A stretch of DNA of 64,000 nt from Escherichia phage vB_EcoM_WFbE185: sequence record MK373778.1. One strand, given 5' to 3'. Made by a program: the position numbers and the translations under genes. The notes under the pieces were generated by a model, which was not told the DNA's origin, made no database searches, and was given only the letters and a program-made list of their open reading frames with translations. Below, in pieces: positions 2,518 through 8,147 of this stretch; position 1 is the stretch's first letter, and every line of letters starts with the position of its first letter.

Positions 2518-2990
2518 TCGGTAATAAAACGTTCAACTTCATTATTCTTGGCCTTTATCTTGTCTTTACGTTCCTGTAAACTACTTTTAACAAGATTAAT
2601 AATGATGCCTACAGTACCTCCACCAATAATACCACCAATAATACTTACGATAGTAGATGCTAATAAGATAGCAATAATATCAACAAAACCGAAAGAACTC
2701 ACCTTAGTACTAAAAAACCATACCGACGGTACAAATATAATCCATCCTGTTATCCATTGGCACTTATTGAAAAACTTTTCAAGCTCAGCTTGAGTTGTTC
2801 GTATTACTTCATCGATAGGTTGATATCCGTTAATGTATCTGTTCACGATAATACCTGCTGGCTGGTCGATTTTAAATTCTTGGCAAATACGTTTAACTAA
2901 GTAGGATGGACATCCTGTCCAATCTACTGAATAGTATGAAATACCTTCGTTGCCATCGTCTATATTAGACCAATATGTTTTGTTAATCAT
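2499..2990 (-). CDS. hypothetical membrane protein (two predicted TM helices), C-terminal FITECR
   Basis: ORF track 163 aa; hydrophobic stretches WIIFVPSVWFF and IIAILLASTIVSIIGGIIGGG. Confidence 0.65.
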   Translation of the reverse strand: MINKTYWSNIDDGNEGISYYSVDWTGCPSYLVKRICQEFKIDQPAGIIVNRYINGYQPIDEVIRTTQAELEKFFNKCQWITGWIIFVPSVWFFSTKVSSFGFVDIIAILLASTIVSIIGGIIGGGTVGIIINLVKSSLQERKDKIKAKNNEVERFITECRNLR

Positions 2991-3676
2991 TACCAGCCTT
3001 CCATAGGGAATTCCAGATAAACTTGAGCATTGACACGAATTTCATTGGTAATCTTTTTAACTCGGTCTGTATTACGAGATACACGTCCGAACCAACGCCA
3101 TCCGTTACTAATTGCACGAGAACCAGTGTGCCATGTTTGCCAATCAAACTGAAGAAGAGTACGATCTGGAGCTTCCCATTTCTCTAGTTCACCTTTTTCA
3201 ATTTTTTCGAGGACTTCTTTGTGCCACTGGCGATAGATAAGTTCGCCATCAGGAATCTGACTGAACTCTGCAGTTCCTGTTGCAAAATGAGTAGGACACA
3301 CGTCAGCGTTAACAAGACCAAGAATGTGTTCAGACAAATAGCGAGGATTGTCATAATCAGGTTGTCCTGCAGTAATAAAGTGTTGACCTACCGGAATATC
3401 CGGGCGTGGTACATCGTCATGGTGATAACCTGGGATAGCAGGGTACCAACCAGGCATCAGCATGTGGACTCGTGAATCAAATACAACCTGATCGGTGTTC
3501 CAATCATCTGGCAAGTTCATGATGAAGCTGCGAGTAATAGGACCGCCGTTATTATAAGCAAATTCTAAACTACAGTTGAAGAACATAGGCTCGTTTTTAA
3601 TCTGCTCGTTTTTAATCGCATGAGCAAAACCACCTACTGCACGAGCTTGACTATTAAACACTTTAGAACTATTCAT
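2990..3676 (-). CDS. hypothetical protein
   Basis: ORF track 228 aa; ATG preceded by GAGGA. Confidence 0.7.
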   Translation of the reverse strand: MNSSKVFNSQARAVGGFAHAIKNEQIKNEPMFFNCSLEFAYNNGGPITRSFIMNLPDDWNTDQVVFDSRVHMLMPGWYPAIPGYHHDDVPRPDIPVGQHFITAGQPDYDNPRYLSEHILGLVNADVCPTHFATGTAEFSQIPDGELIYRQWHKEVLEKIEKGELEKWEAPDRTLLQFDWQTWHTGSRAISNGWRWFGRVSRNTDRVKKITNEIRVNAQVYLEFPMEGW

Positions 3677-3677
3677 A

Positions 3678-3983
3678 TTATTTTCCTCGACATTCTTTAA
3701 TGAAATTTTCTAGATTGGTAGATTCAATAGCTTTTTTACGAGCTTCTGCGTGTTCTTCTTCAGACAATTTACGTTTATAATTGACCCAGACATTATGGTC
3801 TAAACCGGTCGTGGCATATAATATCAAAGCTCCGACGAATAATAAAAACGGTGATAAAAATATACAACCAGGAACACCATCCATACTGTAAGCCTTTTGT
3901 AATACTGCAACAGAAAGAGCTGCGTAAAAAAGTGATGCAAATATTGTAAAAAGACCAATTCGGTTGGTTTCGCCTAATTTCAT
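3678..3983 (-). CDS. hypothetical small membrane protein, C-terminal FIKECR
   Basis: ORF track 101 aa; two hydrophobic helices; own early promoter. Confidence 0.7.
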   Translation of the reverse strand: MKLGETNRIGLFTIFASLFYAALSVAVLQKAYSMDGVPGCIFLSPFLLFVGALILYATTGLDHNVWVNYKRKLSEEEHAEARKKAIESTNLENFIKECRGK

Positions 3984-4011: not shown

Positions 4012-4041
4012 ACTATAACATAGCCCTATAATTGTGTAAAC
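4012..4041 (-). promoter_or_regulatory. early promoter cassette (-35 GTTTAC, -10 TATAGT inside ataggact/agtcctat palindrome)
   Basis: minus GTTTACacaattatagggctatgtTATAGT, leader with GAGGAG before ATG 3983. Confidence 0.55.
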
Positions 4042-4053
4042 AGTTTTGTGAAG

Positions 4054-5010
4054 TTATTTGAAAGGTTTTACCATATGGAAATTTTGTTTGAAACGTTTTA
4101 CGTAATCGTCATGTCCTAAGCTTTGGTACATACTTACAACTTTGCTGTAGTTTTCCCAGGCGTATTCACGGAACCAACCGGAGGTGATGCTTGTGCAGAC
4201 TTTTTCTAATGCCATCATGAAACTGGCTTCAGGGTTAATTTTAAAGTCATTAGGAATCTGAGAACGTTCTAATGCTAGTACACATGATTCTTCATATACA
4301 CCGGCCAATTTGACCATTTCTGGTAACGATTCGAACTTCTCGCGTGAGGTCATGACTTCAGAACCGTCTTTCATATAAAATGTATACGCTGGGCGGTCTG
4401 TTAGCGCAATGGCTTCGTGAATAGTGTCATGGTCATATGTATAGATGTCATCTTTAAAGAACGCACTTTTAGAAGTGTCAAGAACTGGGTGAGCATAGTT
4501 CAAGGTTTCTTTCTGGCGTTTCAGCATAATTTCAGTAAGTTCATCGTTCAGTGTAACACCTTTACCACGAAGATACTGAATATGGTTCATAGTCTTTAAA
4601 AAGAATGGATTATTTTTCTTGAAACGATGAGACATCTTAATTGCAAGGCACATCTCAGGAGTCGCCCAGTAAAACCCGTTCAAACGGTCTTTAGACAAAT
4701 TTTTCTTGGCGTATTTTAAAAGGTCATAAGAAGACGTGAAATCTTCAGGAGTGAGTTCACCTACTAATTCACGGACATTAGTGATTGCCGGAACAATATA
4801 TGCTTCAAAATGAGTTTCGCGTCCATTATGGAAGCATTTGAAAACTTGGACATCAGGGTTATCTTGGTGAACATATACACCCATCATTTGATTTTTGAAT
4901 GCATTCCAAGAACATTGGTCCGCAATAAAGTCCCAATCACTATTTTTGATAGCGCTAGAATCAATAAGACCGTGATAGTGAAGTGCACGAGAACCAATAA
5001 CTAACATCAT
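4054..5010 (-). CDS. hypothetical protein, possible nucleotidyltransferase fold
   Basis: ORF track 318 aa; N-terminal IGSRALHYHGL...SDWDFIAD resembles GS...DxD of Pol-beta-type NTases (weak). Confidence 0.7.
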   Translation of the reverse strand: MMLVIGSRALHYHGLIDSSAIKNSDWDFIADQCSWNAFKNQMMGVYVHQDNPDVQVFKCFHNGRETHFEAYIVPAITNVRELVGELTPEDFTSSYDLLKYAKKNLSKDRLNGFYWATPEMCLAIKMSHRFKKNNPFFLKTMNHIQYLRGKGVTLNDELTEIMLKRQKETLNYAHPVLDTSKSAFFKDDIYTYDHDTIHEAIALTDRPAYTFYMKDGSEVMTSREKFESLPEMVKLAGVYEESCVLALERSQIPNDFKINPEASFMMALEKVCTSITSGWFREYAWENYSKVVSMYQSLGHDDYVKRFKQNFHMVKPFK

Positions 5011-5038
5011 AATATTTTCCTCGGATTAATTCATTAAC

Positions 5039-5278
5039 TTAAATTTCACGACATGCGATATTATATTCATCCCAGAGGTCAACATGTGAAGCCTCTACCA
5101 ATGGAACGATTGTACCGTTTATGTCTTCATTATAAGGGCAAATTGTACAGTGCGCATCTTCGAATCGGATGCCTTTATGTTCAGATTTTTTATAACGCAT
5201 ATCGAATATCTTTGCAAACTTTTCACGACTAATAGTTTTAGCAACTACTTCAGTTCCGATACTTTCGTAATAAATCAT
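5039..5278 (-). CDS. hypothetical protein
   Basis: ORF track 5039..5290; second ATG (MIYYES) has GGAG SD, first does not. Confidence 0.6.
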   Translation of the reverse strand: MIYYESIGTEVVAKTISREKFAKIFDMRYKKSEHKGIRFEDAHCTICPYNEDINGTIVPLVEASHVDLWDEYNIACREI

Positions 5279-5306
5279 TGTGGACTCCATTTAATTTGAT
5301 AGGACT

Positions 5307-5336
5307 ACTATAACATAGCCCTATCTTGTTGTAAAC
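5307..5336 (-). promoter_or_regulatory. early promoter cassette (GTTTAC / TATAGT in palindrome)
   Basis: same gataggactactataacatagccctatc cassette as at 4000. Confidence 0.55.
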
Positions 5337-5340
5337 TGTT

Positions 5341-5538
5341 TTAGCAAGAATAACTAGATGATACCCAGCCTTGAACAGTAATACTATTGTGGGATAATGA
5401 GATCGCGTCCTGGAGATTCAGACCTGCGTTATCTTCAATCCATAATGTAACTTCTTCGCGTTCTTCTGTTGCAATCTGGAACAGGTTTTCCAGAGCAGCT
5501 ACTGCGGTACGCACAGCACAATCTAATTCACGAGACAT
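5341..5538 (-). CDS. hypothetical protein, paralog family member (C-terminal GWVSSSYSC)
   Basis: ORF track 65 aa. Confidence 0.6.
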   Translation of the reverse strand: MSRELDCAVRTAVAALENLFQIATEEREEVTLWIEDNAGLNLQDAISLSHNSITVQGWVSSSYSC

Positions 5539-5547
5539 ATTGTTTCC

Positions 5548-5820
5548 TTAACAAGTGTGAGAAGATGCGACCCAACCACCAGTTTCGAGGCTCAAGTTGT
5601 AGTCGTATTGGTAAACGTCAGCCCATTCAGCATAGCCGTTTTTTGTACAACGTTCAAGATCAGCTTTAAGATGTCCGGGTGAATGATAGGTTCCACCCAT
5701 ACCATAAGCTGGGTACAAGTTGAATGTTGTGTTTTGTTTATCGGCAATTTCTTTGGCAGCCTCAATAGCTGCATAGATTTTTGCTACAGCTTCAGCCAGT
5801 TCGGTTTGTTCTTTAGACAT
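5548..5820 (-). CDS. hypothetical protein, paralog family member (C-terminal GWVASSHTC)
   Basis: ORF track 90 aa. Confidence 0.65.
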   Translation of the reverse strand: MSKEQTELAEAVAKIYAAIEAAKEIADKQNTTFNLYPAYGMGGTYHSPGHLKADLERCTKNGYAEWADVYQYDYNLSLETGGWVASSHTC

Positions 5821-5829
5821 AATGATTCC

Positions 5830-6135
5830 TTAGCACAACGCAGAAGACGAAACCCAAGCACCTTCAGTAATAACGTAACCATTACCTTCACGCTTAACAT
5901 CGCCACCATTATTTTCAATTTCATCTTTCATCCACTGGGATACGATTTCACCCTTAGGATAATAAGTACGACCGCTACCATAATCACCTACAGAAAATGA
6001 TACGGCATATTGGTCTGCGATCTTTGTTGCTTCTTCTTCGATACGTTCAGCTTGATTCAGAAGTTTATAAATTGCATCTGAAGCGGATTTGGCATCATTA
6101 AACTCTGGTACTTTAATTTCAATAATCTTACTCAT
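5830..6135 (-). CDS. hypothetical protein, paralog family member (C-terminal AWVSSSALC)
   Basis: ORF track 101 aa. Confidence 0.65.
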   Translation of the reverse strand: MSKIIEIKVPEFNDAKSASDAIYKLLNQAERIEEEATKIADQYAVSFSVGDYGSGRTYYPKGEIVSQWMKDEIENNGGDVKREGNGYVITEGAWVSSSALC

Positions 6136-6205
6136 TTTCTACATTCCTTAATAAAGTTTTCGATTGTTTCATTTTCACGTTTAGCTAGGAGTTCATTATA
6201 ACTAT

Positions 6206-6490
6206 TCATTTGAGAAGCGTAAACCCTTTTATTTTCTTGTTATGGTTTATAAAATCGTAGTAAAAATAGACTACAGTACAAAATGATGCGATTGATGCAA
6301 AGGCTTGAGTATATCGTAAGTCCTGCCACTGGTCTGTGAATCCACCAGTGTTCCCTATAAATCCTAACACAACGCCGTCAATAAGAAATCCAACTAATCC
6401 AAAGGCAAATCCCATGCCAATACTCATAATAAAAATTAGAATGTTCTCACCAAGAGAAGGCCATACGGTTAAGAGTTGAGGCTTTTGCAT
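6206..6490 (-). CDS. hypothetical small membrane protein
   Basis: ORF track 94 aa; hydrophobic core ILIFIMSIGMGFAFGLVGFLIDGVVLGFIG; start overlaps upstream ORF. Confidence 0.6.
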   Translation of the reverse strand: MQKPQLLTVWPSLGENILIFIMSIGMGFAFGLVGFLIDGVVLGFIGNTGGFTDQWQDLRYTQAFASIASFCTVVYFYYDFINHNKKIKGFTLLK

Positions 6491-7458: not shown

Positions 7459-7476
7459 GGAGGACCGGAGTCCTCC
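7459..7476 (-). terminator. intrinsic terminator hairpin after ORF 7485..8078
   Basis: ggaggaccggagtcctcc stem-loop followed by T-run on minus strand. Confidence 0.5.
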
Positions 7477-8078: not shown

Positions 8079-8147
8079 ATTATTACCTTTCAATTGGTGG
8101 TTTATTATCCATGAGAGCATTATACTCTGCTCTCAAGAGTTTGTAAA

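Follow-up and report, generated by a model that had tools for sequence, protein, structure and literature searches.

What function might be served by three small adjacent genes whose products all end in much the same cysteine-terminated tail? The question is raised by positions 5341 to 6135 of a 64,000-nucleotide stretch of DNA from Escherichia phage vB_EcoM_WFbE185 (sequence record MK373778.1), which is hereafter called the window and which represents an RB69-like Mosigvirus (over 4.2 kb, 97.7% identity to phages NHEP11 and AV110 and 97.3% to RB69). A preliminary description of this DNA had noted three adjacent open reading frames (ORFs) of 65, 90 and 101 residues ending in GWVSSSYSC, GWVASSHTC and AWVSSSALC, and both the ORF list and a reading of the minus strand confirmed them. 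That description had the triplet right but missed its strand, the size of the family and the linkage to a nucleotidyltransferase gene. We found that the true extent of the feature is a four-gene stretch, 4054–6135, of which the triplet is the small-protein half, and that the small genes and the downstream nucleotidyltransferase gene probably constitute a two-part enzyme system. The four genes are the following.

5830..6135, minus strand: paralog 1, 101 aa, equivalent to RB69ORF139c plus RB69ORF138c; helix, SFSVGDYGSGRTYYP hairpin, acidic linker and tail AWVSSSALC.
5548..5820, minus strand: paralog 2, 90 aa, equivalent to RB69ORF137c; helix, AYGMGGTYHSP hairpin, linker and tail GGWVASSHTC.
5341..5538, minus strand: paralog 3, 65 aa, equivalent to RB69ORF136c; a short form with helix, linker and tail QGWVSSSYSC, lacking the hairpin.
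4054..5010, minus strand: partner enzyme, 318 aa, equivalent to RB69ORF134c; a DUF7277 head modelled as a DNA polymerase beta (pol-beta)-type nucleotidyltransferase, and a helical DUF7275 domain.

The three small genes are true paralogs that are coding and under purifying selection. When compared pairwise by BLASTP, the 90- and 101-residue proteins aligned over 73 residues with E=2e-6, and the 65-residue protein matched them with 4e-4 and 1e-3, respectively. A hidden Markov model (HMM) derived from unrelated family representatives only, with the window sequences excluded, scored the 90-, 101- and 65-residue copies at 8.6e-27, 5.5e-25 and 4.3e-5. The internal segment that had been pointed out in the two longer copies is indeed shared, as IAD..(x)..F....YG.G.TY..P.G. 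As a rough estimate from amino-acid frequencies, a protein end of the form W-x-[SAP]-S-[ST]-x-x-C arises by chance with a probability of about 1e-7 per ORF, and three neighbouring instances are therefore not due to chance. Orthologs at 45–67% identity occur in other genera, conservation at the protein level reaches Aeromonas and Pseudomonas phages, and the ratios of nonsynonymous to synonymous substitution rates (dN/dS) against orthologs are 0.2–0.5 for paralog 1, about 0.25 for paralog 2 and 0.1–0.34 for paralog 3. The small size of the genes, and an RB69 reference record in which the 101-residue gene is split, could be taken as signs of chance ORFs or non-coding sequence. However, the split is owed to a single inserted T, and the far-reaching conservation, dN/dS values below 0.5, a ribosome-binding site for each gene and a confidently modelled fold (see below) leave that explanation with a negligible probability; the conservation data refute it. 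Plus-strand ORFs overlapping the region (e.g. 5683–6000, 105 aa) were also considered and rejected, as conservation tracks the minus-strand frames.

Local duplication and divergence of a small cysteine-terminated protein, as put forward in the preliminary description, is supported by the alignments and the profile, although the duplication is old. The sequence TAAGGAA precedes every ATG, and both internal junctions read TAA-GGAAnCAnT-ATG-TCT.

5539..5547, minus strand: junction between paralogs 2 and 3, 9 nt, GGAAACAAT; Shine-Dalgarno overlapping the upstream TAA stop, as read from the sequence.
5821..5829, minus strand: junction between paralogs 1 and 2, 9 nt, GGAATCATT; the same design, also read from the sequence.

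This twin nine-base design is the expected remnant of a tandem duplication with translational coupling. For the 101- and 90-residue copies, Dhakavirus-, Karamvirus- and Krischvirus-like loci contain separate orthologs arranged in this order too, and orthologs of paralog 3 (ending in …TSWVSSSYEC) are present in Dhakavirus-like loci; such copy-specific orthologs in conserved order across T-even genera indicate that the duplication is ancient. Dhakavirus-, Karamvirus- and Krischvirus-like phages often have a fourth copy, and copy number among related phages ranges from 1 to 6. The 65-residue copy is the weakest member, having lost the YG.GG hairpin and kept only helix and tail. It matches phrog_4882 (E=7.7e-37), and the 101- and 90-residue copies match phrog_899 (E=1.3e-22 and 5e-19, respectively); the pVOG labels VOG2413 and VOG3790 for these families appear in the annotation of phage mogra.

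With regard to the RB69 reference (AY303349, 5831–6137), the extra T splits the 101-residue gene into ORF138c and ORF139c. It is absent from both the window and phage mogra. The same reference copy also carries a TCT to CCT change that turns the SSS of the tail into SSP. The extra T and the Ser-to-Pro change together indicate that copy 1 is damaged in the RB69 reference strain, and it looks like a pseudogene or the product of old sequencing errors.

An exhaustive profile search showed that the small proteins belong to a family with at least 532 representatives (50% identity clusters) at E<=1e-3; a word-indexed search returned few relatives only. Nearly all of the best 150 of these 532 representatives are 67–150 aa long and were matched up to the last residue. 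Their common layout is a long N-terminal helix ending in A-E-x-I-A-D-E, a strand-turn-strand of the form F-x-F..A-Y-G-M-G-G-T-Y-Y-P, a linker of 6–62 residues rich in Asp, Glu, Gly and Ser, and the tail, and their median isoelectric point (pI) is 4.5. Tail statistics were obtained from representatives at <=50% identity, anchored on the last Cys (n=152). Tryptophan stands at position -7 in 151, Ser, Ala or Pro at -5 in 150, Ser at -4 in 152, Ser or Thr at -3 in 149 and Cys at 0 in 152, and the chain ends exactly at this Cys in 144 of 153 family proteins. Glycine at -9 and -8 was found in 79 and 95 of the 152, respectively, and positions -6, -2 and -1, the linker and the body are all variable. 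All three window proteins end in W-x-[SAP]-S-[ST]-x-x-C. The 101- and 90-residue copies carry both the A-x-x-I-A-[DT]-E helix and the F-x-F...Y-G-x-G-G-T-Y-Y-P hairpin; the 65-residue copy keeps the helix (QIATEE) and lacks the hairpin, as do 13 of the 153 representatives and several divergent members. Degenerate tails such as …GWEGSAC and …GGWYSSHC were seen in several multi-copy uncultivated phages.

The AlphaFold2 (AF2) model of the 101-residue protein (pLDDT 90.4) has a 29-residue helix packed on a small sheet with the tryptophan in the last strand, and the lower confidence of the final residues suggests that the tail is exposed. No relative of this predicted fold is known. Searches of the small proteins against Pfam, NCBIfam and PADLOC gave nothing significant; hits to XkdF peptidase (0.007), the MscS C-terminus (0.099) and aminotransferase fragments were below cut-off and inconsistent. 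Profile searches of the Protein Data Bank (PDB) with the small family and with the C-terminal domain of the enzyme returned designed helical proteins and an RNase L fragment (E=0.07), which we regard as noise. A HEPN fold with an R-x4-6-H motif was not found in the small proteins.

The association of these genes with the enzyme gene was examined from both sides. In a comparison of distant phages, a protein of about 310 residues with DUF7277 and DUF7275 domains was always encoded after the small genes, as exemplified by RB69ORF134c, ORF057c of Aeromonas phage 25 and CDS0207 of Pseudomonas phage PsgM04F. A YGMGGTY-containing alignment of the small protein retrieved 35 IMG/VR loci, 33 of which have a DUF7277/DUF7275 gene downstream on the same strand; in the two exceptions the locus is cut by the contig end. 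Retrieval with the enzyme gave 80 loci, of which 71 contain one to six HMM-detectable small copies upstream and 4 further ones contain divergent ORFs ending in W-x-S-S-x-x-C, making at least 75 of 80. The small ORFs lie upstream of the enzyme gene in 230 of 232 cases, and the window, with both on the minus strand, conforms. When all same-strand neighbours in 33 enzyme clades (<60% identity) were clustered, the enzyme was recovered in 33/33 and the small protein in 29/33, the next best family reaching 7/33; no third conserved component was found among these neighbours. The pair sits at e.2/e.3 in RB69 and at nrdD/nrdC.2 in Aeromonas phage 25, and in Pseudomonas phage PsgM04F it adjoins a DprA-like gene and a methyltransferase gene. 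Since the flanking genes differ by lineage and the e.2/e.3 site of T4 is empty, we conclude that the pair travels as a unit. One genome each of 185,579 bacterial and archaeal species gave 5 hits, all of them on contigs of metagenome-assembled genomes, indicating that the module is phage-borne. We consider it very probable that the small proteins and the enzyme function together as partners. Two uncultivated loci, IMGVR_UViG_3300044693_000036 (L116/L036; 413–3421) and L121 (3380–4999), hold five or six paralogs around one enzyme gene, and in L116 one Cys-tailed copy lies downstream of it.

The partner enzyme, RB69ORF134c, is modelled as a pol-beta-type nucleotidyltransferase whose closest structures are MenT1, ANT(2'') and MenT3; this likeness is confined to structure and extends over about 145 of its 318 residues. 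The nucleotidyltransferase head contains G6-S7, D25-x-D27, E69 and K125, and ORF134c thus displays the hG[GS] ... D-x-[DE] motif, third carboxylate and alpha/beta fold of the pol-beta superfamily. In a set of 99 distinct homologs, conservation reaches 98–100% at G6-S7, D25-x-D27 and K125, and position 69 is Glu in 91 and Asp in 8. From these conserved catalytic motifs ORF134c is predicted to be active. Neither DUF1814 (MenT/AbiEii) nor any PADLOC entry was matched by the sequence, and across 30 members the only Pfam matches, even at E<=1, were DUF7275 and DUF7277. In MenT enzymes a phosphoacceptor Ser/Thr two residues before D-x-D (T39 in MenT1, S78 in MenT3) is strictly conserved (PMC11375011). 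The equivalent position 23 in the ORF134c family is N in 32, P in 29, C in 8 and E in 6 of the 99 homologs and thus lacks this MenT signature. The DUF7275 half is the most conserved part of the enzyme, with near-invariant runs such as GVYEE.CVLALERSQIP and KVCTSITSGWFRE and with conserved residues H128, H194-D195, H198, E240-E241 and E248-R249. Our searches found neither a structural nor a sequence relative of DUF7275. Assignment as an HD, PHP or LanC-like domain was rejected for want of fold or profile support despite the H...HD...H...EE motif types, and a HisJ/PHP match at E=0.002 was far below cut-off. The enzyme family comprises >2,200 clusters at 90% identity and is present in 733 of 50,697 GenBank phage records.

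Very distant homologs from Gordonia, Streptomyces, Brevibacillus and Vibrio phages retain G-S, D-x-D, K125, H128, K139, H194-D195, H198, E240-E241 and E248-R249, and differ at R129, R165, Y172, H174, C272 and R281; on sequence grounds the latter, clade-specific residues are candidates for tail recognition. In Vibrio phage ValKK3 (L130, 2360–2653), Streptomyces phage TunaTartare (L128, 3633–3968) and Gordonia phage Aphelion (L127, 3600–3890), small Tyr/Ser-rich proteins flank the enzyme homolog; ValKK3 ORF225 and TunaTartare gp210 match each other (BLASTP 1e-6) and share the motif RYF..GYY.S...EV.P...TIT.Y, and this family may be an alternative enzyme partner. Brevibacillus phage Sundance (L129, 2258–2539) has a 93-residue gene directly upstream of the enzyme homolog, whose product consists of a helix and an acidic EEEEYSSSYY-repeat tail with no Trp and no Cys; the Ser-rich tail is reminiscent of the present one, without demonstrated homology. 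The TunaTartare homolog adjoins an RNA ligase gene (L128 2162–2821), and that of Aphelion lies 1.2 kb from a tRNA array (L127 4847–6436). Overall, only 9 of 60 loci have tRNA genes within 5 kb, so that an RNA-related role is at most weakly hinted at and genomic context lends no support to tRNA transfer.

How, then, might the two parts work together? Pol-beta-fold nucleotidyltransferases are known to modify hydroxyls of small partner proteins, as when MntA polyadenylylates HepT and GlnD uridylylates PII. We slightly favour a reading in which the small proteins serve the nucleotidyltransferase as dedicated partners, their tail entering the cleft and a tail serine becoming nucleotidylylated. The tail would insert into the catalytic cleft between the nucleotidyltransferase head and the DUF7275 domain, the hydroxyl of a serine at -4 or -3 from the end would be nucleotidylylated there, and the terminal cysteine would assist in placing or holding the tail. 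The paralogs, through their variable bodies and acidic linkers, might then direct the modified proteins, or the enzyme carried by them, to different targets downstream in the infected cell. That the tail is invariant while the rest drifts, together with the invariant enzyme domain, the directional linkage, the retention of the paralogs and the confinement to early-gene regions of large lytic phages, makes the tail as an enzyme-recognised element the simplest account. Several ordered and selected partner genes per enzyme are also more readily explained by a set of substrates or adaptors than by one antidote. Tail docking, covalent modification and biological target are all inferred, and our confidence differs between the steps. 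Direct engagement of the enzyme by the tail is likely, and covalent modification, that is, the tail as a substrate rather than a merely regulatory element, is plausible at somewhat less than even chances. More tentatively, the module may be a phage protein-modification system in which the nucleotidyltransferase and a novel catalytic DUF7275 domain tailor the tails of carrier proteins, the modified carriers acting on host targets in early infection. The chemistry would possibly be O-nucleotidylylation, perhaps followed by elimination and thioether closure, or the terminal Cys could possibly act as a swinging-arm carrier.

Several observations weigh against this favoured reading. In about 5 of the 80 enzyme loci a partner is missing from the surrounding 5 kb, the genes need not be adjacent (median gap 528 bp), and in the window an unrelated gene and a promoter-like site (listed below) separate the paralogs from the enzyme gene. 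Among solved structures, the nearest belong to toxins that modify tRNA and to enzymes that modify antibiotics, and not to enzymes acting on proteins. Moreover, 8 of 153 family members have 1–2 residues beyond the Cys, so that a free Cys carboxylate is not strictly required. No coupling was seen between enzyme cysteines and the partner Cys, and enzymes lacking C272/H174 still have Cys-ended partners, which means that no simple Cys-Cys pairing is evident. The distant homologs keep the catalytic residues but have no Cys-tailed neighbour, suggesting that the core activity of the enzyme is independent of the small family, as would be expected if the small protein were a regulator rather than a substrate.

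The last point leads to the alternative of a MenA1-MenT1-like pair, in which the nucleotidyltransferase modifies tRNA 3' ends or another nucleic acid and the small proteins are stoichiometric inhibitors or regulators, binding through the long N-terminal helix with the tail as a pseudo-substrate plug. Such a pair might serve a phage in shutting off the host, excluding superinfection or releasing the enzyme at a set time. The gene for MenA1, a protein of 68 residues, lies upstream of that for MenT1, and the long helix of MenA1 is by itself enough to confer antitoxicity (PMC10435456). The phage small genes likewise lie upstream on the same strand and encode an N-terminal helix of about 29 residues, and their products are acidic, as many antitoxins and nucleic-acid mimics are. 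Nevertheless, the small proteins resemble MenA1 neither in sequence nor in fold, the phosphoacceptor of MenT is not conserved, and the enzyme is not basic (pI 6.5). Antitoxin-toxin interfaces normally co-vary, whereas here the most conserved element, an 8-residue tail, stays constant throughout hundreds of clusters. To keep one to six paralogs for each enzyme, in unchanged order across genera, is not the habit of toxin-antitoxin (TA) systems; the genes are often 0.5–1.6 kb and other ORFs apart, and outside large lytic phages the module is essentially absent. We therefore regard this alternative, although the chief rival, as unlikely. The small proteins could also be independent of the enzyme, for instance as acidic anti-defence decoys, with the adjacency being inherited synteny without coupling. 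They are acidic, small, multi-copy and variable and are encoded in the early region, like typical phage counter-defence genes, and the promoter-like sites suggest separate transcription units, an impression to which the unrelated gene in between adds. This explanation is improbable in view of a linkage that holds in 29 of 33 enzyme clades at <60% identity and in unrelated contexts, with fixed orientation (230/232 upstream) and no other conserved neighbour; such a fixed two-gene linkage is not expected from synteny alone in the hyperplastic regions of phages.

The tail itself suggests yet another possibility, namely that the small proteins resemble precursors of ribosomally synthesised and post-translationally modified peptides (RiPPs). 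A C-terminal S-x-x-C or S-x-x-x-C corresponds to the spacing in lanthionine and aminovinyl-cysteine (AviCys) rings, as in nisin and epidermin, which gives the idea chemical appeal. Here Ser(-4/-3) would be nucleotidylylated and eliminated to dehydroalanine, upon which the terminal Cys would close a lanthionine-type ring; alternatively, the tail would be tailored otherwise and possibly released after the frequent G-G before the W. Besides the ring spacing of the tail, the occurrence of several tandem precursor genes per enzyme (a RiPP hallmark), the frequent Gly at -9/-8 and a second, highly conserved enzyme domain with invariant His, Asp and Glu are consistent with such a scheme. Neither the enzyme nor its neighbourhood, on the other hand, shows similarity to LanB, LanM, LanKC or LanC, YcaO, radical-SAM enzymes, flavin decarboxylase, C39 peptidase or exporters. 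RiPP cores are usually hypervariable and their leaders conserved, whereas the putative core is the invariant part here, and the W is an integral part of the final beta-strand in a domain whose fold is modelled with confidence. Furthermore, C243 is conserved in only 69% and C272 is lost in some lineages, so that a LanC-like Cys/Cys/His zinc site is unsupported. Taken together, these points make a RiPP-like system very improbable.

The immediate surroundings of the four genes contain the following further features.

5039..5290, minus strand: intervening gene between the paralogs and the enzyme gene, 83 aa, equivalent to RB69ORF135c, phrog_3723.
6195..6223, minus strand: early-promoter-like site TTTACG-17-TATAAT upstream of paralog 1, a consensus match only.
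5307..5335, minus strand: early-promoter-like site GTTTACA-17-TG-TATAGT between paralog 3 and ORF135c/the enzyme gene, a consensus match only.

It should be underlined that the number of early-promoter-like sites across the region is not above the shuffle expectation. The enzyme gene begins 330 bp downstream of the triplet. ORF135c is lineage-specific and probably not part of the module; its product contains H-C-T-I-C-P and, later, a C-R-E-I end. In T4, e.2 and e.3 abut directly with nothing between them, whereas RB69-like phages have about 3.1 kb between the two genes with the module inside, the block being an insertion or deletion relative to T4. The RB69 genes concerned are named RB69ORF13x and not after T4 genes, and the earlier remark that the triplet has no recognisable T4 counterpart thus holds. 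The same interval also contains RB69ORF132c/133c (2990–3676 and 3678–3983, minus strand) downstream of the enzyme gene, with products of 228 aa and of 101 aa, the latter a predicted membrane protein. Additional GTTTAC-type early-promoter-like sites lie on the minus strand at 8119–8147 (upstream of e.6) and 4012–4040 (downstream of the enzyme gene), and a perfect 7-bp GC-rich hairpin with a T-run lies at 7459–7476 between e.6 and e.5; the hairpin and these added sites suggest several overlapping early transcription units. At the triplet's other side, e.3 of the window (6206–6490, minus strand) has a 1-nt deletion in an A-run (AAGAAAAATAAAAAG to AAG-AAAATAAAAGG) and ends after 94 aa as compared to 119 aa in RB69 and mogra, in both of which the stop codon of e.3 and the start codon of paralog 1 overlap (ATGA). 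Either the gene is truly truncated in the window, or the homopolymer was misread in sequencing. A 'sulfurtransferase' label in phage F27 proved to be attached to e.4 and not to the small genes.

The families described here are catalogued but unnamed (DUF7275/7277, phrog_899/4882/2141, pVOGs). Our literature searches for DUF7275/DUF7277, PF23940/PF23942, RB69ORF134c–139c, the PHROG and VOG ids and the tail motif found no paper, and those for phage MenT-like nucleotidyltransferases found nothing relevant. T-even and other large lytic phages possess many conserved early genes of no assigned function, and the linkage to the nucleotidyltransferase turns four of them from 'function unknown' into a defined and testable two-component system. 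The tail W-x-S-S-S-x-x-Cys, being the most strictly conserved part of the small proteins, offers a precise handle for mutagenesis and mass spectrometry. The hosts of enzyme-bearing phages include Escherichia, Klebsiella, Acinetobacter, Pseudomonas, Aeromonas and Vibrio, from which it follows that the module is present in many candidates for therapeutic phages. Should the tail prove to be nucleotidylylated or otherwise tailored, viruses would possess a new pathway of post-translational modification, and the MenT/ANT-type fold would have a new use; if the small proteins instead gate a tRNA-modifying enzyme, lytic phages would for the first time be shown to employ a MenAT-like module themselves instead of having it turned against them. 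Either outcome bears on how phages take over the host or defend themselves inside it.

Compared with known systems, the module differs from MenA1-MenT1 (Rv0078B-Rv0078A) and the wider MenAT/AbiE group (DUF1814) in showing no sequence similarity on either side. The phage enzyme adds the large, highly conserved helical DUF7275 domain, and the phage partner combines a beta-sheet body with an invariant Ser-Ser-x-x-Cys tail and occurs in 1–6 copies; the phage genes are often non-contiguous, and they reside in lytic phages rather than in cellular genomes. Among lanthipeptide and other RiPP clusters, tandem precursor-like genes together with a single enzyme gene, and a thioether-compatible C-terminal spacing, are shared features, but the defining enzymes, proteases and exporters are absent here, the tail is invariant and the would-be leader is a folded domain. 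ThiS, MoaD and ubiquitin-like proteins, with their GG tails and E1-type adenylyltransferases, are alike in that a small domain presents a short invariant C-terminal tail to a nucleotide-using enzyme, and HypE and DsrC have a reactive Cys at or beside the chain end; the enzyme is of the E1/ThiF type in those carrier systems and of the pol-beta type here, and Gly-Gly is replaced by Ser-Ser-x-x-Cys. GlnD-PII, GlnE, class II CCA-adding enzymes and RelA/SpoT likewise combine a nucleotidyltransferase head with an all-helical domain bearing conserved His/Asp, and GlnD modifies a small signalling protein on an exposed loop. The likeness of DUF7275 to such second domains would be one of motif type only; no sequence or fold match between DUF7275 and HD domains was detectable. 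HepT-MntA (HEPN-MNT, type VII TA) resembles the module in that a minimal pol-beta nucleotidyltransferase (poly)nucleotidylylates a side-chain hydroxyl near a conserved motif of a linked small partner, and this chemistry provides a precedent for the substrate model. The phage partner, however, lacks the HEPN domain and the R-x4-6-H motif and has a fold without a PDB relative, its acceptor would be a Ser in the C-terminal tail and not a Tyr as in HepT, nothing suggests that it is toxic, and the phage enzyme is much larger. A nucleotidyltransferase with a small linked partner is thus a known kind of system, as represented by MenAT and HEPN-MNT. New are the fold of the partner, its tail with a terminal Cys, the additional domain of the enzyme, the presence of several gene copies and the setting in lytic phages, and there is a realistic chance that the modification chemistry is new as well.

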